From NCBI GenBank assembly GCA_963422735.1, contig OY730476.1, positions 544,001 through 608,000 of the forward strand: 64,000 bases of DNA, written 5' to 3'. A program made the position numbers and the translations under genes. Under the pieces are notes generated by a model. That model was not told the origin of the DNA and made no database searches. It was given only the letters and a program-made list of their open reading frames with translations. Positions 28,420 to 51,671 of the stretch are shown here, in pieces; within the stretch, counting starts at the first letter, position 1, and the number at the start of each line of letters is the position of its first letter. The DNA is from Candidatus Latescibacterota bacterium (lineage in GTDB: Bacteria; Latescibacterota; UBA2968; UBA8231).

Positions 28420-29319
28420 ATGAAGAGACTGACTCTTCTCGCCTTGGTCGCGGTGATGGCTGCTTCGGCGGCTTTTGCGCACCAAGCTAACTATTTCATG
28501 CCGCAGATTCCCAATCCCGACAACATGGTCATCGACGGCAACGACGACGACTGGGGCTGGATTGATCCGGCTTTTGCTATCAACCCGGACACCATGTACG
28601 AGATCCTCGGCAGCGAGTGGCCCCCGGCCAAAGACGATTGGGACTGCATTCTCTACGTGGCTTGGAGCTCGGCACCCGACAATTCGCTTTACTACTTTTC
28701 TCGGGTTACCGATGACTCGCTGGGCCTCTTTGTCGAGAACCCTCAGGAGTATTGGAAGGACGACTCGCTGGAAATCATCGTCGATGCCGATCACTCAAGT
28801 GAGAACTTCAACGAGACCGAACAAATCTCCGGCCAGCAGTACGGCATTCGCATCCTGCCCGCCGCTGGTCAGAAGGACACTTGGATCTTCAACGTGGCGC
28901 AGGAGAGCATCCTGTGGTCCACCGAGCGTCCTTGGTTCGTTTATGAGTGGACCCTCGATCCGCCGGACGCCCGTCCGATGGAGCAGCCCGCTGGTAGCTC
29001 GGTGACCTACACCTACGAGGTCAAGCAGGCCTTGTGGACCTCCCATGACAAGACGGGCCCCGAGGGCAGCGCTCGCCACAATTTTGCCCCCGACCAGATC
29101 ATCGGTCTGACCTTTCAGTTTGACGAGACCGAAAATCCCGAGGTGGGCCGAGAGAAGCAGCCGGGCACGACGCCGGTCAACGGCGCATTCCAGGACAACT
29201 CGAACGGCTCGGACTTCATCGCGGTGGAGACCGAAGGCGCTACGGGTGGCACGGGCGGCGACGATACGGCTGTCGAGGCCGATAGCTGGGGTCGGATCAA
29301 AGGCTATATGGTCCAATAA
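28420..29319 (+). CDS. Secreted CBM9/DOMON-like protein with C-terminal 'TAVEADSWGRIK' motif
   Basis: Signal peptide (AFA); IDG...DW, LY..W...LY...V.DD, W.DDSLEI.VDAD, YE..., IG.TF..DE; GGAGG RBS. Confidence 0.72.
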   Translation: MKRLTLLALVAVMAASAAFAHQANYFMPQIPNPDNMVIDGNDDDWGWIDPAFAINPDTMYEILGSEWPPAKDDWDCILYVAWSSAPDNSLYYFSRVTDDSLGLFVENPQEYWKDDSLEIIVDADHSSENFNETEQISGQQYGIRILPAAGQKDTWIFNVAQESILWSTERPWFVYEWTLDPPDARPMEQPAGSSVTYTYEVKQALWTSHDKTGPEGSARHNFAPDQIIGLTFQFDETENPEVGREKQPGTTPVNGAFQDNSNGSDFIAVETEGATGGTGGDDTAVEADSWGRIKGYMVQ

Positions 29320-29366
29320 AGTGCATTCCTGGCGTTTTCGCTAGCGTAGCGCACATTGGGCGCAGG

Positions 29367-29408
29367 TAGATAAAGAGAGGTGGAGGCGACTTCATCTCTC
29401 TTTATCTA
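29367..29408 (+). terminator. 19-bp intercistronic stem-loop with GCGA tetraloop (leaky terminator or mRNA stabiliser)
   Basis: TAGATAAAGAGAGGTGGAG-GCGA-CTTCATCTCTCTTTATCTA; both mismatches are G-U pairs on the + transcript; no poly-U tail. Confidence 0.75.
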
Positions 29409-29442
29409 TCGCCTCTGCATCGTTTTCAGGAAGGCATTCTCA

Positions 29443-30189
29443 ATGAGGATACGGAACATCGCAACAAGCGGGCTTTTGTCGGCTCTTTATCTGTTTGCGC
29501 TTGCCGGGTGCATCTCGCAGGTGGGGCTGCGGCGCTTTGCAACGTTTCCCGAACCGGTTCCGCAGCAAAACGAGGCCATGACTGTCCTCGACGACGGCGC
29601 GATCGTCTATGCCAAGGATCGCTTGGAGATCTCGCTACAGGTGTTGGATGACGGGTTCCTCAATCGCCAGTTCGCGGCGGATTCAAGGAAGGGTGCTGAA
29701 TCGACCAATCCATACACGTATGGCGATTGGAAGCCTTGGGGCCAAGACTGGACCCCGGAGCGCTTTACCGTGGTCTTGCTAAAGGTCAAAAACTACGAGT
29801 ATCCCAAGGTTTTCATCGACCCCACGGCGCTCGCGATCACTACGTCGAATAACCGAGTATATAACGCGCTCGACGGCGGGCAGCTCGAAGATTACTTCAG
29901 CCCGTATCTGCGGTCTTATGCTGGCAACCAGCGGCGGCAGTTCGAGGCTACCACCGACCTACTCAAAAGCACCGTCTATCCGCCCGACATGGTCTTTTCC
30001 GGCCAAGAGTCAACTGGGTACATCGTCTTTCCGGTTTTGCATAGAGACGTGAGTAACTTCACCGTCAATGTGCCGGACATAGCCGTGCGCTTCGACTACA
30101 AGGGCGAACCAGTGGAGACCATCGACCTACCATTCCAGTTTCAACGCGAAGTTTACTACGCGCTTCATCCCCGTGCGGAGACGCCGTAA
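29443..30189 (+). CDS. Hypothetical lipoprotein (Ig-like, DUF4352-like fold possible)
   Basis: Lipobox LAGC; V.N...P..F.I.T...Y and G...TGYIVFP pattern; stop overlaps the next start. Confidence 0.75.
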   Translation: MRIRNIATSGLLSALYLFALAGCISQVGLRRFATFPEPVPQQNEAMTVLDDGAIVYAKDRLEISLQVLDDGFLNRQFAADSRKGAESTNPYTYGDWKPWGQDWTPERFTVVLLKVKNYEYPKVFIDPTALAITTSNNRVYNALDGGQLEDYFSPYLRSYAGNQRRQFEATTDLLKSTVYPPDMVFSGQESTGYIVFPVLHRDVSNFTVNVPDIAVRFDYKGEPVETIDLPFQFQREVYYALHPRAETP

Positions 30190-32153
30190 TGCATCGAGGG
30201 ACGGCCCGCATTGCGGCGCTGTTGTGCGCCTTGTGCTCCTGTGCACAGTGGCTCGCCGCAGACGAATGGGTACTCGGAGGGCATGGGTTTTCTTGGGGAG
30301 ATCTCGTGCAGGTCCGCGCCCAGATCGACGACCAGAGTAGCCTTGGCGCGATTCAGATCCGCGGCTTTACGCCCGACGAGAACATCATCACCTCACTCTC
30401 TTGGGCCTATGGCAAGCCCAACGACTTGGTCAGCGAGGGCAATGCAGCCCTGTGGGACAATACGGCGGCTAAGAATTCCATTTCGCTGTCGATCGTCGAT
30501 GGCGACGACACCACGAGCACTGCAGACCTCTTCAAAACCGCTGGCGTCGATCAAGACGGACGCACTTTTTTTTTGGATATAGGCTCGCGCGTGCCAGCCG
30601 ACAGCTTGGTCTTCTTTCCCCGGCAAGAGGGGACGTACGCCAATGGCAAGCCCTTTAGCGCCGACTTTGTCCGCAAGCACCGGATTTCCGTTAGCGATGG
30701 GCTGACCTACGTGAACGAGCAGCCGCTCTTCACCTTACTGCGCGATGTCCCGGTGAACCCCAACAGCGTGTTCACCATGAAATTCCCCCAGCAGTTCATT
30801 CGCTTTATTCTGCTGCGAGTCGGGTCGCGGAACCCCTTTGAGATCGCCGAATTTGAACTCTACGGCAATGGTTTCGTGCCGCGGGCCACGTATCGGAGCC
30901 AAGTCATCGACTTAGGCGAGGTATCCAATTACGGCACCATATCTTGGGCCCAGCGGGCTTTGGAATTGGTGGATGGCGAGTTGATCGAGTTGCCGGATCT
31001 GGGGCAGACCTCGGTCGCAGTGCGCATGAAGACGGGCCAAGACGATAGCCCGCTGGTTCACTTCCAAAAGGTTGTTGACGATGAAACGCGGGCCGTGAGC
31101 CAAGAGGTGGTCTCGGAAGCGGATTACAACAAGCTGCCCTCGGGCAAGAAGGGCGACATCGAGGACGACATCGATAACTGGAGTCCTTGGTCGTTGCCGC
31201 TCAAATCCGGGCAATTGATCCCATTGCCCAGCCCACGCCCCTATTTTCAGTTACAGATCGTCATGGAGAGCAAATCCGTGACGCAGACGGTGCGCATTGA
31301 CTCGTTGCGGATTGAGCATTCGCTGCCCCCGGCCGCTGCGGTCGTCGGCGAGATCTCTTTGGCTGACGATCCCAACCCACCGGCCGACATCGGCGTAATC
31401 GACAAAGACGATGCCGTTGTGCTGCCGAGTATCGACGGGGGCGAAGAGGTGCTCTTCGCCTATGACGTGCGATCCGTAATAAACAACGACAACCAAAGCG
31501 GCTTTGATGTCTTGCGCATTGACACGCCGACGCCAGCGCGCTTTGTCGGCCTGCAGATGGGCGATCCGCTCCTGCCCGTGGAGCCGGATCGCGTGAGCGC
31601 GGGCGATAGAAGCCTTGAAGTGATTTTTACCAGCAATAAGATCACCTTTGACAACAATGTTCCGCTGCGCGTGCTCTTCGAGGGGTCGGCCGTGGTATTC
31701 GGCACGATTTTCACCGGCACGGTCTGGGATACCCAATCCGACATCCTCGGCCAGCCCGTGCTAGAAGGCGATGCCAACTTCGACGTCAGCACCAACTCGC
31801 TGCGCGTGGCCCTGACCCAGAAGTCCGTGGGCGAAATCGTCCGCGCCATAGAGTTTGATCCTTCGGTTTTCACGCCGAATGGGGATGGCATCAACGACCA
31901 CATCGCCATCAAGTACACCGTAATTCAGATTTCCGAGCCAAAGCCTATTGAGGTGGCCATTTACGACTTGGCGGGTCGGTTGGTGCGAGTGCTGGCCGAC
32001 CGCGAGCAGACCGGCGGGATTTACACCGAGATGTGGGATGGGCAAAGCGATGCCGACGAGGCCGTGCCCCCGGGCAGTTACGTGGTCTCGCTCTCAGTTG
32101 ATAGCGGGATCGGCAACTTCAGGCGGGTCGGCGTTATTGGCGTCGCCTATTGA
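30189..32153 (+). CDS. Secreted discoidin-like/FlgD-Ig protein with type B CTD-like C-terminus (paralog 1)
   Basis: Signal peptide; VDGD..T, LDIG, EIAEFELYG; WSPWS; GFD.LRI; FTPNGDGIND...IYDLAGRLV...WDG...PG.Y...VAY. Confidence 0.8.
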   Translation: MHRGTARIAALLCALCSCAQWLAADEWVLGGHGFSWGDLVQVRAQIDDQSSLGAIQIRGFTPDENIITSLSWAYGKPNDLVSEGNAALWDNTAAKNSISLSIVDGDDTTSTADLFKTAGVDQDGRTFFLDIGSRVPADSLVFFPRQEGTYANGKPFSADFVRKHRISVSDGLTYVNEQPLFTLLRDVPVNPNSVFTMKFPQQFIRFILLRVGSRNPFEIAEFELYGNGFVPRATYRSQVIDLGEVSNYGTISWAQRALELVDGELIELPDLGQTSVAVRMKTGQDDSPLVHFQKVVDDETRAVSQEVVSEADYNKLPSGKKGDIEDDIDNWSPWSLPLKSGQLIPLPSPRPYFQLQIVMESKSVTQTVRIDSLRIEHSLPPAAAVVGEISLADDPNPPADIGVIDKDDAVVLPSIDGGEEVLFAYDVRSVINNDNQSGFDVLRIDTPTPARFVGLQMGDPLLPVEPDRVSAGDRSLEVIFTSNKITFDNNVPLRVLFEGSAVVFGTIFTGTVWDTQSDILGQPVLEGDANFDVSTNSLRVALTQKSVGEIVRAIEFDPSVFTPNGDGINDHIAIKYTVIQISEPKPIEVAIYDLAGRLVRVLADREQTGGIYTEMWDGQSDADEAVPPGSYVVSLSVDSGIGNFRRVGVIGVAY

Positions 32154-32472: not shown

Positions 32473-35100
32473 ATGAAGCGCATGCTCTGCGCAGCACTCG
32501 CGATGTTAGGCATCGCGCTCGCGCACGATGGTGCCTTGGCCCAACGGGTCGGTTTTCTCACCGGACGCGAACCGCGAGGCGTGGATGTCTATGAGATGGC
32601 GATGACGCCGGCGCAGCGGAAGTGGCAGTATCCGCAAAGCCTGTACCACTTCTACCGCTGGACTGGCGAGGAATACAGCAATTACGCGCGCGAAATATAC
32701 GAGCGGTACGTGGGGACTGAACTAGAGGGATTTCGCACCTACGATCTGTACGGCAATTACATCACGCGCGGCTTTGAGGTGTACACTTGGTCGGTCGATA
32801 GCCCGGTGACTTCCGGCAGCGAGGTTCGCAAAGGACTCTACTACTCACGGTTCTTTAGCGGCCTGATCGTCTCGTCCATGTCCAAGGGGCAGTTCTACTC
32901 GTCGATGACCATTGGCGAGGCCCTGCGCACCACCCTGACGCCGCTGACCTTTTCCAAGCCAACCTTCAATGGGGTGCAGTGGGACTTTGCCGCCGACAAG
33001 TACCAGATGACCCTCTTGGCGTCGCGCTTGGCCTCCCCGGGCACGGCTGTGGCGCTTGAAAATTCGCTCGGCCAGATCCTAGGCGACATGACCAACCTCT
33101 TCGGTGTGCATTCCAAAGTGCAGCTCGGGGATTTCTCCAAGCTGGGCTTTACCTATCTGAACATTGCCAACTTCTCCACCGGTCGCAAATTGGGCGACAA
33201 CTCGCTCAAAGGGGTATTGACTGAGGCCCAAAACGGCGGCAATATCGAGACGATCGTCCTGCGGCTGTCGGACGATTCGCCCGAAGACGGCGTAGGCGGT
33301 GCCCAGCTTTTTGCCGAGCGCATTATCATCGACGGGGTCGATCACCCCGAGATCGTCCCTTCGCCGCGCGGCGGCGTGCGGCGCGCCGGCGTCATCGAGG
33401 CCAATGGGGCCGAAACCTTGGAGCTGACTTACAACATAGCCCGCGACTTCCGCCAACAGCCCGGCGACGAGATCACCACCTTTCAGGAGATCCGCGAAAT
33501 CGAGTTTGAGTTGGTCATCGCCAACGACTATCGGATCGAAATCACCTCCAATCTGCAAGTCAACGGCCAGGGCGAGCCCGTGTTCTTGGAGGTCGAGCGC
33601 GCCCATGGCAACGTCGGCGACGGCTCGAACCAGCGTTTCATCAGCTTTGAATACGGCCTGCCCACCGGCAAGGACATCATTGGCCTCAACTTTGATATAG
33701 ATGACATCAAAGGGTTCAATATGCGCTCGGAGATTGCCCTCAGCCGGGCGTTTCGCCGCTTTCCCAACCAGAACTTCCAAGAACACACCCTCGCTCAAGA
33801 CGACGGCTTGGCCTATTACCTCACGGCCTCACAGGACGCGTATCCGTTCTTCGCGTACGGAGAATTCTACCGCCTAGAGCCTGAGTACCAGACCAATGCG
33901 TTTATCGCGGATGCGCGGGGTTTTATCGACTACGAACATCCAGAGCGCTATTCCTTTGAGGCGGTTGATGACAACGACGACCAAGACCGTTTTCCCGACT
34001 GGAAGCGCCTGTGGCAAAACGGTGACAGTGCCTTTGGCCAAACGCCTTTTGGCACCGGCGGTGCAGCCGACCCGCAGGTCTTTCCCGGATACGACGAGAA
34101 CGCGGATTTTATCTCGGACTTCAACCAAAACGACAACGGCCAGCCGGATTTTGCCGAGCCGTTTCTGCGCTACAACGTCGATCCGCCCGAGTTTCTCTTT
34201 GGCGTTGACATGAACAACAACAACGTCATTGACCGCTTTGAAAACGACACCTTCGCCGATTATCCCTACCGACAGGATCGCGATGGTTACAATGTGTACG
34301 GGGGTGTTCACTTGACCGAAGGCATCAAGCTGACGGTAGGCCACTCCGCAGCCGATGAGATCAGTTCCAAGCGCAGTGCGCAGATGAGCTATGCGGTGCT
34401 TACGGGTCAGTGGAAGTGGCCGGGCATCGAGGCCCGGGCTTTCCAATACGCCCGCTCGGTCCAAGACGACATCGAAGACGATGTGATCGAATGGGTCGAT
34501 CCAGATGGATTTCGCGAAACCATCGATCCACTGATCGCCCAAGATGCCTTTGTCTGGACCGGCTATCTGACTCTCGATTACCTGCGCCTCAAAAACCTGA
34601 ATATCTACAACAAGGTGAAGTACGATTGGTTTAGGCAGCGCGGCGAGCAGGCCGAGGTCAAAGACAATCGCCTCTTTTTTGGCGCGATCAACAAGGTGGA
34701 TTATCCGCTACCGATTACCGATAACTTGTCTTTCTGGCCGCGCTACAAGAGCGTCTTCCGCAAGATCAACCCGACCTTTAGCACCGACCTCGACATTATC
34801 GAGTGGTCGCAGTTTTACATGCTGACCTCAAAGTACTTCATCCTGCCTGGGACCTTTATTGAATACGGCGTCGAGTTGAACCTCTTCCGCAATCTCGAAG
34901 AGCGCCCGGAGATCTTGCCGCCTGGATACGTCGATGACTTCACGGGTTCGGTGCTGGCCTTACAGCTTTCCAACAGGTCGGCGTACCTTGGTTATTCACT
35001 GATCATGAACACGGGTTTTCGCTGGGAGCGCCGAGCCTTTGCCGAAGCGACCGAAACCAACTCGCTGCTCTTCATTCGGGTCTTTGCGGGTCTCCAATAG
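32473..35100 (+). CDS. Large exported protein, probable outer-membrane beta-barrel with Ca-binding acidic loops
   Basis: Signal peptide ALA-Q; aromatic-rich alternating strands; DDNDDQDRFPD, DENADFISD, DMNNNNVID loops; ends LLFIRVFAGLQ; GGAGG RBS. Confidence 0.7.
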   Translation: MKRMLCAALAMLGIALAHDGALAQRVGFLTGREPRGVDVYEMAMTPAQRKWQYPQSLYHFYRWTGEEYSNYAREIYERYVGTELEGFRTYDLYGNYITRGFEVYTWSVDSPVTSGSEVRKGLYYSRFFSGLIVSSMSKGQFYSSMTIGEALRTTLTPLTFSKPTFNGVQWDFAADKYQMTLLASRLASPGTAVALENSLGQILGDMTNLFGVHSKVQLGDFSKLGFTYLNIANFSTGRKLGDNSLKGVLTEAQNGGNIETIVLRLSDDSPEDGVGGAQLFAERIIIDGVDHPEIVPSPRGGVRRAGVIEANGAETLELTYNIARDFRQQPGDEITTFQEIREIEFELVIANDYRIEITSNLQVNGQGEPVFLEVERAHGNVGDGSNQRFISFEYGLPTGKDIIGLNFDIDDIKGFNMRSEIALSRAFRRFPNQNFQEHTLAQDDGLAYYLTASQDAYPFFAYGEFYRLEPEYQTNAFIADARGFIDYEHPERYSFEAVDDNDDQDRFPDWKRLWQNGDSAFGQTPFGTGGAADPQVFPGYDENADFISDFNQNDNGQPDFAEPFLRYNVDPPEFLFGVDMNNNNVIDRFENDTFADYPYRQDRDGYNVYGGVHLTEGIKLTVGHSAADEISSKRSAQMSYAVLTGQWKWPGIEARAFQYARSVQDDIEDDVIEWVDPDGFRETIDPLIAQDAFVWTGYLTLDYLRLKNLNIYNKVKYDWFRQRGEQAEVKDNRLFFGAINKVDYPLPITDNLSFWPRYKSVFRKINPTFSTDLDIIEWSQFYMLTSKYFILPGTFIEYGVELNLFRNLEERPEILPPGYVDDFTGSVLALQLSNRSAYLGYSLIMNTGFRWERRAFAEATETNSLLFIRVFAGLQ

Positions 35101-35181
35101 TAGGGCTGCACTATTTCCTTGTGGATCCAAAGCACCCGGCGTTCTCTAGCGGAGATGCCGGGCGCTTTACTGCCTAACAGT

Positions 35182-36426
35182 ATGGACATGCGCCTTGCCG
35201 CGACATGGATAGGGCTAGTCGGCCTCCTCGGAGGGATCGGCTGTGATTCCCCGGAACGCCACGTTCTCAAAAAGCCTGCCACGCCCCAGCCCCTCGCGTT
35301 CTACCAGCGCGCCTACGAGCAAAACCCCGCAGACCCAGAGGTGCTCTTGGCCTTGGGGTGGCTCTACCTACAAAAGGACCGTACGCGCCACGCCGTCGCC
35401 GTGCTGTCCGCACTGGGCGCGGTTGCGCCCGACGACGCGGATGCCCACTACTACCTCGGGGTTGCCCTCGCCAAAGAGCACCGCAAGAGCGAAGCCATAG
35501 CCTCCTTTAAGCGAGCACTTGAAAAGGCACCGGCCTTTGCCGAGGTGTACTGGGCCTTGGCATTGCTGTACAACGAGCGCGGCGATGGGTATGAAAAGGC
35601 GCTTGCAACGGCCGAAGAGGGATTGCAACTGGCTGCGGAGAGCGGCTATGGGCACTTCGTGTTGGGTTTTGTGCTGTGTTCGCGCGGCGACAATGAAAAC
35701 GCCAAGACTGCGCTGCTCAAGGCGATTGAACTCGATCCCGGCTTGGCCCACGCCTACTACTACTTGGCACTGGTGTACTTGCGCTTGCAGGACGATGAGC
35801 AAGCCATAGGGGCCATGGAGCAGACTATTGCCGCTGACCCGGGTTACTCCTCGGCCTATTACAGCTTAGGTACGCTCTATGCGCGCACGGGCCGCGTGGC
35901 CGAGGGAGCGCGAATGAGTGAGCTTTTTCAGCAGTTGAGTAGCACGACGATGGACGAGGATCACTACCGCCGCTTGCTCTATCGCCAGGCCGTGCCGCTG
36001 GCGGCCGACAAGCGGGTGGCCACGCATTTCAACTTGGGATTGGTTTACTTGCACAGAAAGGAGCTAGCAGCGGCACGCGAGCAGTTTGAGGCGGCCTTGG
36101 CCCTTGATTCCACGTACGCGGAGGCCAGCCACAACATCGGGGTGATCTATTCGCTACAAGAGCAACACGCGGTTGCCCGGCCCTTTTTGCTGCGTGCGGT
36201 GCGCCACAAGCCCGACTACGCTTTGGCCTTTGAGAACATCGGCAACAACAGTTTGGCCCTCGGCGAGTACGAGGCTGCGGCCGCTGCGTTTCGCCGCGCC
36301 TTGGCTCTCGACGGGAGCATGGCCTCGGCCCTCGACGGCTTGGGCACCGCGCTGATCCAGCAGGGCCGCGTGGCAGAAGGCCGCGCGGCTCGCGTCGAGG
36401 CCGCAGCCTTGAGGGCACAACGGTAA
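35182..36426 (+). CDS. TPR-repeat lipoprotein
   Basis: IGC lipobox-like site; many A.Y.LG...A...F..AL..P repeats. Start 35182 or 35188. Confidence 0.85.
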   Translation: MDMRLAATWIGLVGLLGGIGCDSPERHVLKKPATPQPLAFYQRAYEQNPADPEVLLALGWLYLQKDRTRHAVAVLSALGAVAPDDADAHYYLGVALAKEHRKSEAIASFKRALEKAPAFAEVYWALALLYNERGDGYEKALATAEEGLQLAAESGYGHFVLGFVLCSRGDNENAKTALLKAIELDPGLAHAYYYLALVYLRLQDDEQAIGAMEQTIAADPGYSSAYYSLGTLYARTGRVAEGARMSELFQQLSSTTMDEDHYRRLLYRQAVPLAADKRVATHFNLGLVYLHRKELAAAREQFEAALALDSTYAEASHNIGVIYSLQEQHAVARPFLLRAVRHKPDYALAFENIGNNSLALGEYEAAAAAFRRALALDGSMASALDGLGTALIQQGRVAEGRAARVEAAALRAQR

Positions 36427-44976: not shown

Positions 44977-44986
44977 GGAAGCACTC

Positions 44987-47419
44987 ATGTACAACCGAGC
45001 CATCGCCTTAGTATTGCTGCTTGCCTGCCACGCACGCGCCGAGTTTCTCACCTTCGCCAGCCAAGCGGCTTGGGAGGCCAACTGGTCGCTCAAGCCGCAG
45101 TTAAATATCTTCACCCCGGAGGGGCACCTAGGGCTGGTCAAGTTTCGCAAGGACATCAACGCCGCGCTCGACGCCCATCTCTTCGTCCACCCGACGAATG
45201 AGCGCGGGGATGTAGCGGGCGGCATCTGGTCTGCGCTAAGCAACCCAAACGACGCCCCCCAAATCATCGACGGGGATGCTGCCACCTTTTGGAAGCCGGC
45301 TGGTGGCGATCCACTTGACAAGTGGATCGTGCAAATAGACTTGGGCCGCGCAGTATTGGCCAAAGAGATCCGCATCTACTTCCCCGATGAAGAGGGGGCT
45401 AAGCCCTTCCGCCAGTTCAGCGTCTTCGCCTCTACGGGTGCCCACGTGGCGGCTTTAGAGGATGTATATCGCTTCGCGCCGATCTATCGCACGACTAAGC
45501 CCAACTTGGATACCTATGTCAGCTTTGGGTTCAAGCCGGCCGTGGAGGATACCACCCGCGCCGTGGAGCAACTGAGCGATGTCAGCGGTCGCGATGATTT
45601 TACCGTGGACTTATTCAGATTCAAGGCCAACACCGCAACGGAGACCGGCCAAGCGGATTCGCGGGTGGCGGCCAACTCCGAGTGGCAGACGATCCAGTTC
45701 ATCCGCTTCCTCGTCGATGAGCACCAGCTCGACGGCGCGCTCGCCGAGATCGAAGTCATTGCCGTCGGCGACAACATCAGCCTTGGGGTAGAAGAAAAAG
45801 GTGGCACCTACATCAATGGATCGCGGGCGACCGACCCCTTATTTTGGCTCGACGGCAACCTCAATACGTACGGGGTTATCGAGGTGCATCAGCAGTTTAC
45901 CGAGTCGCGCGGCACGGCCTTTGAAGGGGGCTTGTGGTGGCAGGTGGATCTGGGGGCTACCTACTGGGTTGACGACGCGTTCGTCTATTGGCAAAAGGCC
46001 GGAGAGCGCCTCGCCGACTTTCGCTTGGGCACCAACAACGCCGGCACGGGGTACACCTTTTTCTCTTCCGACGGGACCAAGACCTTGACCGGCGACATCG
46101 ACTTTGATACGTGGATTTTTGAACCGGAATGGACCAATCCCCGCGAACAATACAAGCGGCATTACCGCTATTTGTTCAATCCACGCAAGGTGCGGCACAT
46201 CTTCTGGCTAGCCCTGCACGACTTGGGCTGGCGCGCCCATCCGATGGAGCTACAGATGTTCTCCCCGGGCCACCCGGCCGAAGTCGCGATTCAATCGCAT
46301 TTTTTGGACCTGAGCGTCCTCGCTGGCGACGGACAGCCCAAGGTAATCAAGGCGCTTCACTACGACGCCGACCTGCCGCCCAATACCCAGATCGAACTGC
46401 GCTCCCGCTCGGGCAACGAGATGGGCGAGGTGTACACCTTTCACAACAAGATCGGCGAGGTCGTCACCGAGGAGAAGTGGAAAAGCTCGCCCAAGGTGCT
46501 GCGGGGCCGAGTGGATACCTCGGTTGTCGTCGGAGAGGAGTGGAGCGAGTGGAGCAACTTGTACAAGCTGTCGGGCGAGCCTTTTAAGTCGGACTCGCCG
46601 CGCAGGTTCGTCCAGCTAGAGCTGGTTATGAGCACGGAAGATCCGGAGGTGGCTCCCACGGTGCGCTCGGTCGAGTTGGAGTTTGTCGATGCGTTGGTCA
46701 ACGAGGCGCACGGGTCCATTCTGCCGCGCCAGGCCAAGCCCAACGAAGACACCCGTTTCACCTATATGCTATGGCCGTCCGCGACCCCGGAGAACGTGGG
46801 CTTTGACCGCCTGCGCTTGGTCGTGCCCGACTTGGTGCGGGCCGATGAGGTTGAGGTGATGGTCGCCGATCAGGCGGTCGTGCCGGCCGCCATGGACATT
46901 GCAGCGGATTCGCTGATGATCGACTTGCCGCAGGTGGTTCAGGGCGACTCCGTGCAGGTCTTCTTCACCACTCGGCTAATGAGGAACGCCGCGGTCGTAG
47001 AGGCCGATTTGGGCCTGAGCGACGCGCCCGGCCTGTGGCAGGACGTCGAGCCGGCCGAGCGCCGGTCCAACGTGGTGCTCCTGCCCGATCTGGCCGACAG
47101 CGACCGCTTGATTGGCGACTTGCAGCTTTCGAGCCGGATGCTCACGCCCAATGGCGATGGAGTCAACGACTTTGTGGCGCTGAGCTTTGTCGTCTTCAAG
47201 GCCCAAGATGCTATGCCTATGGTCGAGGTGCGCAGCTTGGGCGGTCGGCCCGTGGCCCAATTGACGCCGGTCGCAGAGGGGCCAACCCGCCGCTTTAGGT
47301 GGGATGGCCAAGACGCGGACGGTGCGATTGTGCCCCCAGGCATCTATCTCTGGCGCATAGACGTAAACGCAGACTCAGGTGACGCTATCGAGCTACGAGT
47401 TGTCGAGGTAGCCTACTAA
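44987..47419 (+). CDS. Secreted two-discoidin/FlgD-Ig protein (paralog 3)
   Basis: IDGD.ATFW..IDLG and LDGN.NT..VDLG; WSEWS; GFDRLRL; LTPNGDGVND...WDG...PGIY...VAY. Confidence 0.8.
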   Translation: MYNRAIALVLLLACHARAEFLTFASQAAWEANWSLKPQLNIFTPEGHLGLVKFRKDINAALDAHLFVHPTNERGDVAGGIWSALSNPNDAPQIIDGDAATFWKPAGGDPLDKWIVQIDLGRAVLAKEIRIYFPDEEGAKPFRQFSVFASTGAHVAALEDVYRFAPIYRTTKPNLDTYVSFGFKPAVEDTTRAVEQLSDVSGRDDFTVDLFRFKANTATETGQADSRVAANSEWQTIQFIRFLVDEHQLDGALAEIEVIAVGDNISLGVEEKGGTYINGSRATDPLFWLDGNLNTYGVIEVHQQFTESRGTAFEGGLWWQVDLGATYWVDDAFVYWQKAGERLADFRLGTNNAGTGYTFFSSDGTKTLTGDIDFDTWIFEPEWTNPREQYKRHYRYLFNPRKVRHIFWLALHDLGWRAHPMELQMFSPGHPAEVAIQSHFLDLSVLAGDGQPKVIKALHYDADLPPNTQIELRSRSGNEMGEVYTFHNKIGEVVTEEKWKSSPKVLRGRVDTSVVVGEEWSEWSNLYKLSGEPFKSDSPRRFVQLELVMSTEDPEVAPTVRSVELEFVDALVNEAHGSILPRQAKPNEDTRFTYMLWPSATPENVGFDRLRLVVPDLVRADEVEVMVADQAVVPAAMDIAADSLMIDLPQVVQGDSVQVFFTTRLMRNAAVVEADLGLSDAPGLWQDVEPAERRSNVVLLPDLADSDRLIGDLQLSSRMLTPNGDGVNDFVALSFVVFKAQDAMPMVEVRSLGGRPVAQLTPVAEGPTRRFRWDGQDADGAIVPPGIYLWRIDVNADSGDAIELRVVEVAY

Positions 47420-47436: not shown

Positions 47437-49788
47437 ATGCTAAACAAATACGGGATTTGCTGCTTGCTCTTGGGACTATTGCTCTACGGTTCGAGCCGGG
47501 CGGAGGAAGTCCGCTTCGACACCCCGGCCGAGTGGGCGACTTGGGATATCCCGGTGGATATCGTCCAGTTTGCAGACGACGGATCGCTGGAACTGAGGAA
47601 ATTTCGCAAGGAGATCAACGCCACCCTCGATGCCCATCTCTTCACCCAGCCTACCCAGAAGCGTGGCGAAATCGCCGGGGGGATCTGGCAGGCAGGCTCC
47701 AATCCGATGGCGGCTCAGCGCATCATGGACGGCAATCTGGAGACGGTGTGGCGGCCCAATTCGGCCGACGACTTGGTCGATTGGGTGGTGACTATCGACT
47801 TGGGACGGCCCGTGCTAGCTGAGCGCATTCGCTTGGTTTTTCCCGACCGTACAGGCGCACGTCCCTTGCGTCAATTCAGCGTCTTCACGGCCAATGGGGC
47901 GCGCATCCAAGCCACAGACGATGTCTTCAAGTTCGACCAAGCCTTTCAGACGACCCAGCCCAACCAAGAGCAGGTCGTCGATATCGAGCTAGTCGGCGAG
48001 CGCGACATAACGCGAGTTCTCGACGAAAGCCTCGGGCTGGAGCCGGACGCGCTGAATACCTTCCGCATGGTGCGCTTTGTGCGCGTACGCGCCGACGAAA
48101 AGAGCGCGGACGCGGCCTTGGCCGAAGTGGAGGTGATCGCCGCGGGCGACAACATAAGCATCGGGGTCTTGGCGCGCGGGGGCAGCTTCGACAACGGGCT
48201 TTTGGCGCGCGAGCCGCAGAACATGTTCGACGGCATCACCGACACGTACGGCAATATATTCACCGTCCAGAGCAAAGGCGGTTGGCGCGAGAGCGGAGTG
48301 TGGTGGGCCGTCGATCTAGGTGCGCTGTTCTGGCTCGACGAAGCATTCATCTACTGGCAGAATCGAGGCGAGGGCCTGTCGAGCTTCTTGTTTGAGGGGT
48401 TGCAGGCCGGCACTGGCTACCAAGTCCTCTTTTCCGATGGGCGGCGCACCATTGCCGGCGACATTGACTACGCGCCGCTGATCTTCGAGCCAAGGCCGGT
48501 CAACAGCGCAGAGTGGGCCTTGCGCCACCACCGCTACGTATTTGCCCCGCGCAAGATTCGCTACCTGTTCTGGCATTCGCTGACCGATACCGGCTGGTTT
48601 TCCCACCCCATGGAGCTGATGTTGTTCTCGCCGGGCTATCCCGCGCAGGTGGTGTTGCGATCGGGCTTTATCGACCTCGGGCAACTCGCCGGCGACGGTC
48701 GCCCCAAGGCCATCAAGCGCTTGCGCTGGGAGGCGACAGCGCCTGACCAGACGCGGTTGCAAGTGCGCTCGCGCGCGGGCAGCACCCTGCAAGAGTTATA
48801 CACGTTTTACGACAAAAAAGGCGAGCAAGTCACCGAGACGCGCTACAGCAGCTTGCCCAAAGTGATCCGAGGCCCCATTGACACCATGGTCGTCGTGGGG
48901 GCCGATTGGGGTCCGTGGAGCAACTTCTACCAGTTTTCCGGCGAGGCATTTAAGTCTCAGACGCCGCGTCGCTTTATCCAGTTAGAGCTGATTATTTCCA
49001 CGGAGGATCCAGCCGTCGCGCCAGTGCTACACGCCCTCGCACTGGATTTTGAGGACGCGTTGGTCGCGCAGGCTACCGGGCAGATTGCGCCGCGCCGCGC
49101 CGTGCCCAACGAGGCGACGCGGTTTGCGTACACGGTGCGGACGAGCGCGGCGGAGGGCGACTCGGGTTTCGACCGGCTGCGCTTATCTACGCCGAGTGCT
49201 GTCGATGCAGCGGATGTGCGGCTGCGGATCGGCGGTGCAGAGCGCGAGGCGAGCGGGGTGCGCGTGGTGGGGGATTCGCTGCTGTTCGTCGATTTGCCAG
49301 AGACCGTGCGGACGGATTCCATCGCCGTGGAATTTACCACTAAAGTGCTGCGCAACGCCACGGTCTTTGCTGCCGACTTAGGGCAAGAGGCACGTCCGGG
49401 GCTGTGGCAGTCGGTGGAGGCGGCCGAGCGGCAAGCCAACTTGGTGTTTCTACCCACTCTGCCCGGCAGCGTGCGGCTGGTCGGCGATTTGCAGATTGTG
49501 CCGCCGGTGTTTTCGCCCAACGGCGATGGTATCAACGACCGCGTGCAGATCCGCTTTGCGCTGTTCAAGGCCGTCGATGCCACCCCGAGCGTGTGCATTT
49601 TCGACTTGGCGGGTAGGGAAGTGGCCGCTCTTATGTCATCTGATGGGGATGTGTTACAGTCATTTAGCTGGGACGGGTTGGATGCGTCGGGAGTTCGGGT
49701 TGCGCCTGGGGTGTACGTGTGCCGCATTGACGCGGGAGCTGACGCCGGACAGGGACGAGTATTCCGCACCCTAGCCGTAGCCTATTGA
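47437..49788 (+). CDS. Secreted two-discoidin/FlgD-Ig protein (paralog 4, closest to paralog 3)
   Basis: KFRK.INA.LDAHLF..PT..RG..AGGIW shared with paralog 3; WGPWS; FSPNGDGIND...VAY. Confidence 0.8.
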   Translation: MLNKYGICCLLLGLLLYGSSRAEEVRFDTPAEWATWDIPVDIVQFADDGSLELRKFRKEINATLDAHLFTQPTQKRGEIAGGIWQAGSNPMAAQRIMDGNLETVWRPNSADDLVDWVVTIDLGRPVLAERIRLVFPDRTGARPLRQFSVFTANGARIQATDDVFKFDQAFQTTQPNQEQVVDIELVGERDITRVLDESLGLEPDALNTFRMVRFVRVRADEKSADAALAEVEVIAAGDNISIGVLARGGSFDNGLLAREPQNMFDGITDTYGNIFTVQSKGGWRESGVWWAVDLGALFWLDEAFIYWQNRGEGLSSFLFEGLQAGTGYQVLFSDGRRTIAGDIDYAPLIFEPRPVNSAEWALRHHRYVFAPRKIRYLFWHSLTDTGWFSHPMELMLFSPGYPAQVVLRSGFIDLGQLAGDGRPKAIKRLRWEATAPDQTRLQVRSRAGSTLQELYTFYDKKGEQVTETRYSSLPKVIRGPIDTMVVVGADWGPWSNFYQFSGEAFKSQTPRRFIQLELIISTEDPAVAPVLHALALDFEDALVAQATGQIAPRRAVPNEATRFAYTVRTSAAEGDSGFDRLRLSTPSAVDAADVRLRIGGAEREASGVRVVGDSLLFVDLPETVRTDSIAVEFTTKVLRNATVFAADLGQEARPGLWQSVEAAERQANLVFLPTLPGSVRLVGDLQIVPPVFSPNGDGINDRVQIRFALFKAVDATPSVCIFDLAGREVAALMSSDGDVLQSFSWDGLDASGVRVAPGVYVCRIDAGADAGQGRVFRTLAVAY

Positions 49789-49796
49789 GGAATGCC

Positions 49797-51671
49797 ATGA
49801 CTGTCGCTCCAGCGGTGTATCGAGATCAGAAGTGGATTATATCGCCTTTTGGCGACCTGTTCTTTTTTATTGGTACGCCGCTTTTGTGCTTGGTGACCAT
49901 GCTGCCGCTGCGGGCCGTGTTCGACTCGCAGACCATTGCTTTCTACGCGCTGGCGCTGTTTGCCACCGGGCATCATTTACCTGGCTTTATGCGCGCATAC
50001 GGTGACCCAGAGCTATTCCGCACCTTCAAGGAGAAGTTCGTCGTCGCGCCAATTGTCGTGCTCGTCGTGACGGCGCTGGCGCAATTCAATACCCTGCATG
50101 GGCTGTTCTTGGTGGTCTTGGTGTGGGAGATCTGGCATTTGTTTATGCAGCACTACGGCATCATGCGGATCTACGACGCCAAAAACAAGATATTCTCCAA
50201 GCTCAATTCCCGGCTCGACTGGTTGTTGACCTTATGTGCTTTTGTAACAGTCGTCATCTATAGCCCCGAATACTTCCACCGCATCCTCGACCACAACCAG
50301 CGGGTCGGCGTACCCTTTCTGTCAGCCGAGTTGACGTTCCTGCTCAAAAAGGTGCTGTTCTATTTTACGATGGCCGTACTCGCGGCTTACTTGGCCAATA
50401 TCGTCCAGCGGGCAGTTACCGGTCAAAAGATAAGCCTGCCCAAGGTCGCGGTGATGGCGACGACGGTGTTTATCATCTACTATGGCTGGATACATATCAA
50501 CGACCTCGTCATCGGCTACGCGGCCTTTGCCGTTTTCCACGATATCCAGTACTTCGCCATCGTCTGGATCTACAACAACAACCTAGTCAAAAGGCAGGAG
50601 CGCACCACCAAGCTCCTGCGCACCTTCTTCACCACGCGCACCTTGCCGATCTTGGTCGCGTACGTGCTAATATGCTTCGCCTACGGCAGCATCAACATGA
50701 TGGAGGGCTTCCTCAAGTCCGAGCAGGCGATCAAGATGGTCGAGATATTCGTCATCACCTCGACGCTTTTGCACTACTACTTCGACGGGTTTATCTGGAA
50801 AATCCGCGACCGCAAAAACCAAGCCAATTTGGGAATCAATGCCGAGGAGGGGTCCAACCGCATTGGATTGCAAGCATTGCCGAGCGGCTTGGCCTCGTAC
50901 TTGCGCGAGACCGGCAGGCAGTTGGCCTATTTCGCGGTGCCGGTGATGGCGTTCTCGCTTTTCCAGTTTTACTGGACGGCCGACGAGGCTGAGGCGCGGG
51001 AGAAGATGGTCGAATTGTTCCCGGACTTGGCCGGTGCCCACAACAACCTCGGCGTCTTGTACGCGCGGCAGGGCAATTGGGAAAAGGCCACCGACGAGTA
51101 TCGGCGGGCGCTAGAGCTGGATGCGAGGGCCTATGAGGCGCATAAGAACCTCGGTCTGCTCTACGCACGGCAGGGCGTGCTCGACAAGGCGCATGTTCAC
51201 TACCAGCAGGCGATAGACCGCAAGCCGCGCTACGTCGAAGCGCTCAACGCGCAGGGGTTGGTTTTTTTACAGCGGGGCGAGTTCGCCAAGGCCGAGGAAC
51301 GCTTTCGCGAGGCCCTTGACGAGTTCGATTACGCCCCGGCGTACAACAACCTCGGCACGGCCTATTTGCAGATGGGAAACTTGCCGGCGGCGATCTCCAC
51401 CTACGAAAGGGCCGTCGCGCTCGACCGGGCCGACGCCTCTCATCATTTCAACTTGGGGTTGGCCTTGCAGAAGGCCGGAGAGAACGAGCAGGCGGTCGCC
51501 GCGTTTGCTGCGGCCCTCTCTTTAGAGCCACGCCACGTCAAAGCTTATTTGAGTATGGCGCTTTCCTACCAGCGGCTGGGCCACCTCGCTGAGGCGCGGC
51601 AGGCGTTGCAACAGCTCTTGGCAGTGGAGCCGAACCATGCCACGGCTGCGCTGCTGTTGGCCCGAATGTGA
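49797..51671 (+). CDS. Polytopic membrane protein with conserved His motifs, fused to C-terminal TPRs
   Basis: About 9-10 TM segments with GHH, WH..MQHYG, FHDIQY and LHYYFDGFIWK, followed by about six TPRs. Confidence 0.8.
   Translation: MTVAPAVYRDQKWIISPFGDLFFFIGTPLLCLVTMLPLRAVFDSQTIAFYALALFATGHHLPGFMRAYGDPELFRTFKEKFVVAPIVVLVVTALAQFNTLHGLFLVVLVWEIWHLFMQHYGIMRIYDAKNKIFSKLNSRLDWLLTLCAFVTVVIYSPEYFHRILDHNQRVGVPFLSAELTFLLKKVLFYFTMAVLAAYLANIVQRAVTGQKISLPKVAVMATTVFIIYYGWIHINDLVIGYAAFAVFHDIQYFAIVWIYNNNLVKRQERTTKLLRTFFTTRTLPILVAYVLICFAYGSINMMEGFLKSEQAIKMVEIFVITSTLLHYYFDGFIWKIRDRKNQANLGINAEEGSNRIGLQALPSGLASYLRETGRQLAYFAVPVMAFSLFQFYWTADEAEAREKMVELFPDLAGAHNNLGVLYARQGNWEKATDEYRRALELDARAYEAHKNLGLLYARQGVLDKAHVHYQQAIDRKPRYVEALNAQGLVFLQRGEFAKAEERFREALDEFDYAPAYNNLGTAYLQMGNLPAAISTYERAVALDRADASHHFNLGLALQKAGENEQAVAAFAAALSLEPRHVKAYLSMALSYQRLGHLAEARQALQQLLAVEPNHATAALLLARM

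Follow-up and report, generated by a model that had tools for sequence, protein, structure and literature searches.

Proteins that carry a type B T9SS C-terminal domain (CTD) bind PorP/SprF-like barrels to which they are genetically linked, as set out in two papers (PMC9143113, PMC12618676). The T9SS may also occur in other FCB phyla, according to a review passage that does not name Latescibacterota (PMC11285876). A further point of reference is given by the SusC/SusD systems of Bacteroidota, which depend on TonB. For the widespread, uncultured Latescibacterota and related FCB candidate phyla, ideas on the uptake of organic matter have largely come from enzyme counts. The gene cluster analysed here, from a Latescibacterota genome, shares features with both kinds of system, and a preliminary description of it had proposed that it was undescribed. 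Literature searches likewise gave no published description of such a cluster.

The cluster lies in a 64,000-nucleotide stretch of DNA, hereafter the window, where the ORF listing contains 13 plus-strand ORFs over about 23 kb (28420-51671), with abutting neighbours (Table 1). The 13 co-directional, abutting genes of the preliminary description were thus confirmed by the listing, Pfam, and NCBIfam, and its domain calls stand as stated except for discoidin, for which Pfam matches (F5_F8_type_C and F5_F8_type_C_2) are confined to g11 and g12, i.e., to the g12 type, and absent from g3 and g10. The listing places the first start at 28405/28420; position 28420 is an ATG preceded by GGAGG and is the start of g1. 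Intergenic distances range from -8 to +60 bases throughout, save for 320 bases between g3 and g4. Overlaps of 4-8 bases occur at four junctions (g6/g7, g7/g8, g8/g9, and g12/g13), and g2 and g3 have one base in common. The divergent control region contains a 20-nt perfect inverted repeat (28190-28209 and 28338-28357), and promoter-like sites are not enriched in it (3 found versus 3.2 expected from shuffled sequence). The arrangement of the cluster is not due to chance, since 21 near-orthologous loci share it and paralogous ones have it in reshuffled form.

Table 1. Positions of the features in the window, with the predicted character of their products.
Feature	Positions	Strand	Basis or remark
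CUT1-type ABC importer set, divergent	23732..28089	-	Pfam SBP_bac_1, BPD_transp_1
CUT1 permeases	25226-26383 and 23732-25213	-	BPD_transp_1; UgpAE/MalFG-like
CUT1 solute-binding protein	26380-28089	-	SBP_bac_1
Divergent control region	28090..28419	.	A+T-rich; sigma-70-like hexamer pair on each strand; inverted repeat
g1, secreted CBM9/DOMON-like protein, about 300 aa, signal peptide	28420..29319	+	Pfam CBM9_1
g2, lipoprotein	29380..30189, probable start 29443	+	LAGC lipobox conserved in relatives
g3, secreted; N-terminal region homologous to g10, beta-rich middle, type-B-like CTD ending -VAY	30189..32153	+	Pfam, paralogy
g4, predicted outer-membrane beta-barrel, 875 aa, signal peptide	32473..35100	+	AlphaFold2, Foldseek
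g5, TPR protein, probable lipoprotein signal	35119..36426	+	Pfam TPR; seen in orthologous loci only
g6, CRTAC1-like FG-GAP/ASPIC-UnbV propeller	36427-38118	+	FG-GAP_3 and UnbV_ASPIC
g7, CRTAC1-like FG-GAP/ASPIC-UnbV propeller	38115-39752	+	FG-GAP_3 and UnbV_ASPIC
g8, TPR lipoprotein, lipobox AAGC	39749..41134	+	Pfam TPR; conserved partner
g9, double-parvulin peptidyl-prolyl isomerase, SurA/PrsA/EpsD-like	41127..42893	+	Conserved partner
g10, paralog of g3, type-B-like CTD ending -LAY	42787..44976, probable start 42934	+	
g11, two discoidin-type domains, type-B-like CTD ending -VAY	44861..47419, probable start 44987	+	
g12, two discoidin-type domains, type-B-like CTD ending -VAY	47437..49788	+	Tandem paralog of g11
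g13, polytopic membrane domain (1 to about 400) fused to TPR repeats	49785..51671	+	Overlaps g12 end by 4 bases
d1, convergent CRTAC1-like gene	51685..54252	-	

The AlphaFold2 model of g4 (pLDDT 77.3, pTM 0.73) consists of about 25-26 long antiparallel strands, with a beta-sandwich insert at residues ~260-376 and acidic, Asp/Asn-rich loops at ~497-602. Acidic residues are invariant among g4 relatives, and the Tyr/Trp-rich N-terminal stretch is conserved and modelled with low confidence. In Foldseek searches against the PDB, the model matched solely large barrels (MtrB, SlpA, FimD/PapC, and LptD) of 24-30 strands, with E-values from 7e-12 to 1e-5 and low TM-scores (0.12-0.35); the values were E 1e-8 and TM 0.17-0.28 for SlpA, and TM 0.20-0.24 for FimD/PapC. 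No PDB chain, SlpA included, was found by the single g4 sequence or by a 40-sequence profile, and g4 has neither a Pfam or NCBIfam family match of any kind nor a TonB box or plug family in those databases. The Pfam family SlpA_C (PF21620) has no match in g4, matches weakly in 6 of 40 relatives (best E 2.9e-4), and also appears in precomputed annotations of some distant relatives. PorP_SprF has no Pfam or NCBIfam match in g4, in its 39 aligned relatives, or in the 39 window ORFs scanned. The preliminary description had recognised neither SusC/D nor PorP/SprF, and no such family was found in those 39 ORFs. The g4 family comprises 695 cluster representatives (50% identity) at E<=1e-3, and every named relative is called hypothetical. 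Taken as it models, g4 is an outer-membrane barrel without a described family, which agrees with the earlier proposal of the 875-aa protein as a barrel candidate.

As judged from their sequences, g3, g10, g11, and g12 are paralogs with type-B-like T9SS CTDs. Pfam places CHU_C and FlgD_ig at the C-terminus of all four. CHU_C (PF13585, cut-off 27 bits) reaches 36.1 bits in g3, where FlgD_ig scores 29.6, and stays below the cut-off in g12 (26.9), g10 (24.4), and g11 (19.2); among relatives it has E<=0.004 in all 16 and at least 27 bits in seven. The cut-off of NCBIfam TIGR04131 (35 bits) was not reached by g3 (25.0) or g12 (17.9), and g10 and g11 were not listed for it. The CTDs present the motif series TPNGDGxND...WDG...PGxY...VAY; all four proteins end in -AY, and tyrosine is the last residue in 58 of 60 g3-type relatives. 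The identity is 28% between g3 and g10 (E 1e-66), 25% between g3 and g12 across the last 430 residues (E 1e-23), and 48% between g11 and g12. Hence, the paralogy and the -AY ends reported earlier hold, but the four paralogs are better described as three conserved types and one tandem duplicate (g11/g12); each paralogous locus has a single g12-type gene. Moreover, the products of two neighbouring window genes score above the cut-off of the type A model TIGR04183 (23.8 and 28.1 bits versus 23), and the window thus appears to encode T9SS cargo of both classes, A and B-like.

Regarding the partner genes, the CBM9_1 match of g1 is marginal (23.9 bits versus a cut-off of 23.4) and lies above the cut-off in four of nine relatives; the CBM9 family also takes in non-carbohydrate DOMON-like proteins. 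g2 has no match in Pfam, NCBIfam, or PDB sequences; it keeps 43-50% identity among paralogous loci, with many invariant residues, and together with g4 and the CRTAC1-like g7 it is among the most conserved proteins of the module. In LptD and MtrB a partner protein works inside the barrel, and by this precedent g2 is a candidate in-barrel partner of g4. In g9, Pfam finds Rotamase and Rotamase_2 in two stretches, and the NCBIfam PPIase families remain below their cut-offs. FG-GAP_3 is matched by g6 and g7 with E-values of 5e-47 and 6e-47. The membrane domain of g13 has no family match, and the His motif noted in it earlier is real, with H63, H64, H118, H252, and H330 invariant in 21 relatives. 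The preliminary description counted the CRTAC1 genes and g13 as parts of the system, and this was not upheld as a general rule: of the 50 loci that span at least 20 kb, 36 have a CRTAC1-like gene (21 of the 31 paralogous ones), and g13 has a match in none of 80 loci, among which the orthologous ones were covered up to a point short of its position. The d1 gene is possibly associated with the module, given that its relatives adjoin a TPR gene in three paralogous loci (L039, L052, and L055).

A pattern scan of a species-genome collection showed that 620 of 637 matched stretches encode a g4 relative, and synteny was examined in the best 80 of these 620 loci. Wherever g4 is at least 73% identical (21 loci), the window order is retained as far as the examined DNA extends. 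The paralogous set comprises 31 loci of at least 20 kb with g4 below 60% identity, in which the gene order is shuffled into at least five different orders. Within this set, g2 is found in 29 loci, g1 in 28, at least three CTD proteins in 29, g9 relatives in 29 (22-28% identity), a TPR gene in 27 (26-32% identity), and DUF6785 in 25. The core, which consists of g4, g2, g1, the g3, g10, and g12 types, g9, and g8, travels together through this reshuffling, and the gene set is conserved as the preliminary description had supposed. The module has been repeatedly duplicated in Latescibacterota and related FCB lineages; the chromosome OZ247580.1 alone has at least four module loci (L012, L056, L061, and L062). 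The barrel can also stand alone genetically, since four long and eight shorter loci (L020-L031) carry a g4 paralog (65-71% identity) without any partner.

The core adjoins an inner-membrane importer of varying class: CUT1 ABC, OPT/YSL-like DUF6785/DUF6784, or CUT2 ABC. In the window, the sugar ABC transporter from which the operon had been said to diverge is indeed of the CUT1 type, with SBP_bac_1 and two BPD_transp_1 matches; its best NCBIfam matches (UgpA, UgpE, MalF, and MalG) are below the equivalog cut-offs, and there is no ATPase gene beside it among the window ORFs scanned. Eleven loci have the ABC trio upstream of g1 in divergent orientation, and six near-orthologous loci have at this site a DUF6785/DUF6784 protein instead, for which the window has no gene. 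In L016 the DUF6785/DUF6784 gene shares its UvrD and PD-(D/E)XK neighbours with the ABC genes of the window. The model of this protein (pLDDT 74, pTM 0.79) matches an OPT/YSL-like carrier: barley YS1 (7wst_A and 7wsr_A) aligns over the whole chain with TM 0.59-0.62 and E 1e-7, and the next fold match is far worse (E 7e-3, TM 0.13). There is no Pfam OPT match, and the identity to YS1 is 12-13%; a language-model search gave 'peptide transporter'/OPT clusters (score 0.78-0.79), which serve as a lead only. Furthermore, in L069 and L070 the module is followed by CUT2-type sugar ABC genes, in L049 and L051 ABC permease genes come after g4, and L033 is flanked by a binding-protein gene. In 10 of 50 long loci, an importer is absent from the examined DNA. 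The link to uptake made in the preliminary description is strengthened by the swap between unrelated importer classes at one site.

The importer classes differ in their known substrates, which are sugars for CUT1 and CUT2 and peptides or metal chelates for OPT.

The flanks of the module also encode GFO/IDH/MocA oxidoreductases, xylose-isomerase-like TIM barrels, an enolase-superfamily enzyme, a BNR sialidase-like protein, a sulfatase, and a sigma-54 activator with a Y_Y_Y domain. Apart from the one BNR sialidase-like gene and the one sulfatase gene, no glycoside hydrolase or lyase was found in the operon or in the annotated loci, and a polymer substrate is therefore unsupported.

With these data, it could be proposed that the cluster is a PUL-like module independent of SusCD, whose barrel carries lectin-like proteins delivered by the T9SS and passes substrate to the importer; in our judgement, the chances of this reading are evenly balanced. 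The three types of CTD protein would be exported via Sec and the T9SS of the cell, and the barrel would hold them at the surface, by analogy with SprF-SprB and PorP-PG1035. Their lectin-like domains, together with g1, may bind a soluble glycan, or an organic substrate of another kind, which would cross the wide, TonB-independent barrel into the periplasm; since g4 has no TonB box or plug family, this transport would be passive or otherwise gated. Import of the substrate into the cell would then fall to the binding-protein-dependent ABC system or, in other copies, to the OPT-like carrier. The parvulin and the TPR lipoproteins could assist, in the periplasm, with the assembly of the giant barrel and its cargo, and the paralogous copies could each serve a different substrate. 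Weighing against this reading are the near-absence of degradative enzymes, the lack of a TonB box or plug, the differing known substrates of the importer classes, the 10 long loci in which no importer was seen, the barrels that stand alone, the marginal CBM9 match of g1, and the restriction of discoidin matches to the g12 type.

On the other hand, the cluster could encode a surface coat or adhesin anchor without any transport, where a PorP/SprF- or SlpA-like barrel holds the three lectin-like proteins for attachment to particles, hosts, or cells, and the transporters are unrelated metabolic genes. The type-B-like CTDs would fit this explanation, as would the anchoring on linked barrels described in PMC9143113. 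The weak matches of six among the 40 relatives to SlpA_C and the annotations of distant relatives, the presence of SlpA among the fold matches, and the lack of degradative enzymes in the operon point the same way. Discoidin domains, moreover, are common in adhesins. What it leaves unexplained is the recurrence of three unrelated importer classes in varied orders and orientations, with an exact swap at one site, and the sugar-catabolism genes in the flanks; besides, about 26 strands far exceed the need of an anchor, to judge by the size of PorP/SprF proteins. We consider this explanation unlikely, but not negligible.

The cluster could also be a self-contained, T9SS-independent route of secretion or assembly, in which the barrel acts as a usher-like translocon or platform for the three CTD proteins, with the parvulin and TPR lipoproteins as dedicated chaperones. 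FimD and PapC are among the fold matches, and the beta-sandwich insert of g4 sits in the barrel much as the plug domain does in ushers. A PPIase and a TPR protein accompany the module in 29 and 27 of the 31 paralogous loci, and the near-invariant C-terminal aromatic residue (58/60 g3-type relatives) recalls the recognition signals of outer-membrane assembly. However, the TM-scores with ushers are just 0.20-0.24, there is no usher or chaperone family match, and the importer linkage is unexplained. Since the CTDs are type-B-like and neighbouring genes encode type A cargo, the general T9SS is a simpler export route, which also tells against the secretion factor of its own that the preliminary description had assigned to the cluster. 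This second alternative thus seems improbable. It is hardly credible that there is no single system at all, only unrelated envelope genes co-directional by accident. The 320-base gap before g4, the ubiquity of CRTAC1-like, TPR, and PPIase genes, and the fact that g13 and g5 are unseen in paralogous loci would agree with it, but it is contradicted by the synteny counts, the core being kept in five or more rearranged architectures, with protein identities of 22-50%.

Whichever function it has, the module is probably a major, unannotated part of the envelope, given its 695 cluster representatives, at least 620 species-genome loci, and named relatives that are all called hypothetical. If the uptake reading is true, the barrel, g2, and the three type-B-like CTD proteins would be a marker set for substrate-specific loci, in parallel with the use of SusC/SusD in Bacteroidota. 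Type B cargo biology would extend beyond Bacteroidota and beyond PorP/SprF partners. If, more doubtfully, the module is the third capture design outlined below, Latescibacterota and uncultured FCB phyla close to them would use it as a general strategy for acquiring nutrients, and the T9SS would gain a role in building import machines. For DUF6785/DUF6784, the modelled likeness to an OPT/YSL carrier may be a first functional lead.

Compared with known systems, the module resembles the T9SS type B pairs SprB-SprF of Flavobacterium johnsoniae and PG1035-PorP of Porphyromonas gingivalis in having CHU_C/type-B-like cargo beside a barrel gene and, according to PMC9143113 and PMC12618676, in the duplication of cognate cargo and barrel as units. 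Unlike those sets, it has three cargo types per barrel, adds a lipoprotein, a CBM9-like protein, a parvulin, a TPR lipoprotein, and an importer, and belongs to a lineage outside Bacteroidota, with TIGR04131 below its cut-off. PorP/SprF proteins have about 300-400 aa, whereas g4 has ~875 aa and about 25-26 strands and no PorP_SprF match.

With SusC/SusD PULs the module shares the many paralogous loci per genome, the combination of a barrel with surface proteins of carbohydrate-binding type and lipoproteins, and the linkage to inner-membrane importers, sugar-catabolism genes, and, in one locus, a Y_Y_Y regulator; Bacteroidota loci, too, often contain CRTAC1-like (FG-GAP/ASPIC) lipoproteins. It differs from them in that the operon lacks a TonB-dependent receptor, a plug, a SusD family member, and glycoside hydrolases: none of its 13 proteins matches TonB_dep_Rec, Plug, or SusD in Pfam or NCBIfam, and the sole TonB-dependent receptor in the window (3-1511) is 27 kb off. 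Its surface proteins have T9SS-type CTDs, whereas their counterparts in SusC/SusD PULs have lipoprotein signals.

In fold class and size, g4 is like SlpA of Deinococcus radiodurans, MtrB, LptD, and FimD/PapC, but it has no SLH, LptD N-terminal, usher, or cytochrome partner domain, and Pfam and NCBIfam give no Usher or PapD match; two of its elements, the acidic Asp/Asn loop region and the beta-sandwich insert, belong to the g4 family alone. Similarly, DUF6785/DUF6784 and the OPT/YSL carriers (barley YS1, PDB 7wst/7wsr) appear alike in fold and do not share a sequence family. Tentatively, and with more doubt than confidence, the module might be a third design for substrate capture beside TonB-dependent SusCD-type systems and simple porins, made of a TonB-independent barrel of a new family, three CTD-docked lectin-like subunits, and a dedicated lipoprotein, in substrate-specific copies with their own importer.

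The 13 open reading frames of the cluster (g1 to g13) follow one another on the forward strand with minimal gaps or overlaps, the exception being the 320 bases before g4, in a window with a G+C content of about 62%. Searches against Pfam and NCBIfam bore out the gene and domain list of the preliminary description, and the matches are collected in the table together with the coordinates of the features. Scans of the window found neither tRNA genes nor Rfam families, and the promoter and terminator scan gave signals not above those of shuffled sequence. The inverted repeat in the control region that separates the ABC genes from g1 has a chance expectation of none. The identical pair is present in the related locus L001, L013 holds a 21-nt pair with one base different in both arms, and L014 carries a different 23-nt inverted repeat. 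The window-type repeat is absent from seven sister loci, whose intergenic regions are about 75-120 bases shorter. Possible explanations are a small insertion bounded by terminal inverted repeats and a pair of operators.

Coordinates and family matches of the features (positions refer to the window unless a fetched locus, L, is named)
Feature	Position	Strand	Content
YfhO-like and TMEM260-like membrane proteins	12756-16960	+	TPR tails; 11 kb upstream of the operon
ABC trio			SBP_bac_1 binding protein, two UgpAE/MalFG-kind permeases; divergent, upstream of g1
Inverted repeat, perfect, 20 nt	28190-28209 / 28338-28357		128 nt between arms; ABC-g1 intergenic region
g1-g13	28405/28420-51671	+	13 ORFs
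g1		+	CBM9_1 (Pfam), marginal: 23.9 bits, cut-off 23.4
g2		+	no Pfam/NCBIfam family; LAGC lipobox
g3, g10		+	C-terminal domain matched by CHU_C and FlgD_ig (Pfam)
g4		+	875 aa; no Pfam/NCBIfam family
g5, g8		+	TPR proteins (Pfam)
g6, g7		+	FG-GAP_3 and UnbV_ASPIC (Pfam), CRTAC1-like
g9		+	two parvulin stretches (Pfam)
g11, g12		+	C-terminal domain matched by CHU_C and FlgD_ig; additional F5/8 type C domains (Pfam)
g13		+	membrane domain without family, fused to TPR repeats
g13 membrane domain	49785-50990	+
d1	51685-54252	-	third CRTAC1-like gene of the window, convergent on g13
Longer putative redox paralog	53907-56849	-	tail PNPFN ... LLK; passes type A model TIGR04183
Shorter putative redox paralog	56868-58853	-	tail PNPFN ... 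LLK; passes type A model TIGR04183
Orphan barrel gene	L021:9917-12571
AbiEi/AbiEii toxin-antitoxin pair	L041:18999-20565		directly after a paralogous module
TMEM260-like gene	L062:772-3309	-	directly adjoins a paralogous module
TMEM260-like gene	L064:2513-5131	-	directly adjoins a paralogous module

The cluster had been proposed to form one apparatus, and its synteny upholds the existence of a conserved module, with the window order repeated in 21 loci and a core set kept in rearranged paralogous loci. A scan of species genomes with the g4 alignment matched at least 637 stretches, 620 of them confirmed; the best 80 of the at least 620 confirmed loci, each with two flanks of up to 10 kb, were compared with all window proteins by tblastn. 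Where g4 is at least 73% identical (21 of the best 80 loci: L001-L019, L032 and L075), the order g1-g10 is kept throughout the fetched DNA, the 10-kb flank stopping short of g11-g13. Among the 50 of these 80 loci that are at least 20 kb long, g2, g9 and a TPR gene were each found in 44, g1 in 43, a CRTAC1-like gene in 36 and at least two CTD proteins in 44. The barrel is less than 60% identical to g4 in 31 of the 50, the paralogous loci, which show at least five different gene orders and orientations. These retain g2 (29/31), g9 (29/31), g1 (28/31), a TPR gene (27/31), a CRTAC1-like gene (21/31) and at least three CTD proteins (29/31), either of the g3, g10 and g12 types or two g3-like and one of the g12 type. 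Identity to the window proteins there is about 47-50% for g4, 41-50% for g2, 47-52% for g7, 29-36% for g1, 27-42% for the CTD proteins and 22-32% for g9 and g8. Loci L040 and L042 are incomplete, and in L041 a toxin-antitoxin pair directly follows a paralogous module. Chromosome OZ247580.1 carries at least four loci and several other chromosomes two or three, counts that are lower bounds from the best 80 of at least 620 loci.

A word-indexed search yielded 604 relatives of g4 among the candidates scored, nearly all of 860-900 aa and all without a name or called 'hypothetical', and an exhaustive search gave 695 cluster representatives at E ≤ 1e-3. The names of close relatives of g4 assign the organism to Candidatus Latescibacterota, some of their bins being labelled Gemmatimonadota or Handelsmanbacteria; distant relatives are named after Latescibacterota, Marinimicrobia, Gemmatimonadetes and 'Bacteroidetes bacterium' MAGs. 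PDB sequence and profile searches with g4 gave no match, the profile hits being at chance level, and Pfam SlpA_C was matched weakly by 6 of 40 relatives. In the AlphaFold2 model from 40 sequences (pLDDT 77.3, pTM 0.73), some 25 long antiparallel strands fall into three blocks (residues 87-235, 388-468 and 603-874), and a beta-sandwich insert lies at about 260-376. The Asp/Asn-rich stretch at about 497-602 is poorly structured in the model and its acidic residues are invariant, and the conserved, Tyr/Trp-rich N-terminal stretch is of low model confidence. Against the PDB, Foldseek matched the model exclusively to large outer-membrane barrels (TM-scores 0.12-0.35), with E-values of 7e-12 for MtrB, 1e-8 for SlpA, 1e-6 for LptD, and 3e-7 and weaker for FimD/PapC. 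The model and these matches support the earlier suggestion that the 875-aa protein is a barrel, and g4 models as a giant barrel of a family not described before. An MtrB-like electron conduit was considered because MtrB is the best fold match; it was rejected, as the module contains no cytochrome and the MtrB TM-score is 0.28-0.35.

Barrel genes were also found as orphans. None of the twelve loci L020-L031, of which four measure 20 kb or more, contains any partner gene, and their barrels are 65-71% identical to g4; those of complete paralogous modules are about 48% identical. The orphan gene of L021 has a RecD2-like helicase gene on one side and SDR/FAD-oxidase genes on the other. An operon copy and an orphan copy occur together in two genomes (L015 with L021, and L014 with L026). 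Two short barrel-bearing contigs, L024 and L058, are filed as Planctomycetota and as a Thermoplasmata archaeon; with 46-68% identity to a Latescibacterota protein, faulty binning is a likelier explanation than transfer.

Regarding the CTD proteins, g3 can be aligned with g10 from end to end (28% identity, E 1e-66) and with the final 430 residues of g12 (25%, E 1e-23), and g11 and g12 are 48% identical, alignments that confirm the paralogy supposed for the four '-AY' proteins. The last 100 residues or so of all four share the motif TPNGDGxND ... WDG ... PGxY ... VAY. Among the window's four, the CHU_C gathering score is exceeded by g3 alone (36.1); of 16 relatives tested, all match CHU_C at E ≤ 0.004 and seven lie above the cut-off. 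NCBIfam TIGR04131 stays below its cut-off for the operon's CTD proteins. Of 60 g3-type tails from the fetched loci, 58 have Y as their last residue, one has F and one H, so that the terminal aromatic residue is nearly fixed. Judged by sequence, the CTD class of the operon is type-B-like. The two minus-strand neighbours pass TIGR04183, so that the genome encodes both T9SS-type cargo classes. These neighbours are paralogs that combine a PQQ-type glucose/sorbosone dehydrogenase-like part with the type A sorting domain, and they resemble redox enzymes that are secreted or located at the surface. The longer of the two has an additional match, below cut-off, to an SO2930-family dihaem cytochrome c (4.5e-70). 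The occurrence of T9SS is described as spanning the FCB superphylum (PMC11205867), and the available text of a review counts other FCB phyla among possible holders and does not name Latescibacterota (PMC11285876).

Faster divergence of the presumed-binding N-terminal parts than of the C-terminal parts was not found in the CTD proteins, the identities being 30-46% against 36-42% for g3 and 31-37% against 34-48% for g12. The YfhO-like and TMEM260-like membrane proteins are of the GT-C, protein O-mannosyltransferase type; their genes 11 kb upstream of the window operon, and TMEM260-like genes beside two paralogous modules, hint at a possible glycosylation of the surface proteins.

As for the other members, PDB sequence searches with g1 and g2 returned nothing, and profile hits of g2 were at chance level. 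The g2 protein is among the most conserved partners of the module and could be a structural partner of the barrel g4. The best NCBIfam matches of g8 and g9, both far below cut-off, are PrsT (159.8 vs 312 bits) and EpsD (69.6 vs 109), respectively a TPR and a PPIase protein linked to PEP-CTERM/exosortase loci. A PEP-CTERM link was considered because of these matches and was rejected on account of their low scores and the lack of any PEP-CTERM signal. No match to g13 was found in any of the best 80 loci; its close relatives are on contigs equal in length to four g4-bearing ones (74853, 98529, 136036 and 42016 bases), which suggests that orthologous operons retain g13. Its membrane domain, compared among 21 relatives down to 29% identity, has five invariant His residues together with W114, W117, Q122, D334 and K339. 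The relatives are annotated just as TPR proteins, some labelled Planctomycetota, and the domain looks, from this conservation, like an uncharacterised membrane enzyme family. The listed frame of d1 shares about 350 bases with the next gene, and therefore its true start is probably later. This gene may be part of the system, since relatives of d1 (53-55% identity) adjoin the TPR gene in three paralogous loci (L039, L052, L055).

Furthermore, an inner-membrane importer of varying class adjoins the module in most copies. Eleven loci (L001, L002, L004, L005 and L008-L014) have the ABC trio in the window's arrangement, divergent and upstream of g1. Six near-orthologous loci (L015-L018, L032 and L075; g4 80-87% identical) have instead, at the ABC site, a polytopic protein of about 640 aa with the Pfam domains DUF6785 and DUF6784, and in L016 its gene is flanked by the same UvrD-like helicase and PD-(D/E)XK nuclease genes as the ABC genes of the window. 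This protein, absent from the window, is encoded in 37 of the best 80 loci and in 25 of the 31 long paralogous ones, at several positions. Its AlphaFold2 model (20 sequences; pLDDT 74, pTM 0.79) has its best fold match in the barley Yellow Stripe 1 transporter (TM 0.59-0.62, E 1e-7), the next one being at E 7e-3 and TM 0.13. A PDB sequence search with it gave nothing, and a language-model search pointed, as a lead only, to 'peptide transporter'/OPT clusters (0.78-0.79). CUT2-type genes (Peripla_BP_1 or Peripla_BP_4, BPD_transp_2, ABC_tran) come after the module in L069 and L070, ABC permease genes come after g4 in L049 and L051, and L033 is flanked by a binding-protein gene. No importer was detected in 10 of the 50 long loci among the best 80, in a query-based count that excludes the CUT2 genes found by Pfam. 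The flanks further contain genes for GFO/IDH/MocA oxidoreductases and for TIM barrels resembling xylose isomerase (L036, L067, L069, L072). Besides these, L072 has a gene for an enolase-superfamily enzyme, L039 genes for a BNR sialidase-like protein and for a GDSL hydrolase, L070 one for a sulfatase, and L048 one for a sigma-54 activator that carries a Y_Y_Y domain.

We give about an even chance to the cluster being a PUL-like capture-and-import module. Three lectin-like CTD proteins would be held at the surface by g4, on the analogy of type B CTD proteins, which genetically linked PorP/SprF-like barrels hold at the cell surface according to the available text of two papers (PMC9143113; PMC12618676). 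The substrate could then pass through the wide g4 barrel into the periplasm and be received there by the ABC or OPT-like carrier, with the parvulin and the TPR lipoproteins possibly helping assembly. No hydrolase genes were found inside the operon and no TonB-type parts in the g4 barrel. A complex prediction of the barrel with the C-terminal 100 residues of g3 (24 rows each, without controls) gave a score of 0.00, the mark to be reached being 0.32, by which binding is neither favoured nor disfavoured.

A cluster serving purely as a surface coat or adhesin anchor is rather improbable, as it would leave the importer swaps unexplained. The fold hints towards a self-contained usher-like export pathway are weak, and we regard this explanation as quite unlikely. 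Chance juxtaposition of the genes is scarcely credible, being contradicted by the synteny.

No publication was found on this module, or mentioning DUF6785, in a literature search that reached few subscription journals and no supplements. The search also found none joining Latescibacteria or Latescibacterota with T9SS, and nothing relevant on polysaccharide utilization or the outer membrane in Latescibacteria, or on T9SS in Gemmatimonadota or Marinimicrobia. That the capture-and-import module represents an outer-membrane uptake machine of distinct design is possible, if on the doubtful side. In agreement with the preliminary description, in which SusC/D and PorP/SprF were said to be unrecognisable in the cluster, no TonB-dependent receptor, SusD or PorP_SprF family of Pfam or NCBIfam was matched in the module. 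It would work likewise to a SusCD locus, and likewise to a type B cargo/PorP pair, yet it is a member of neither.
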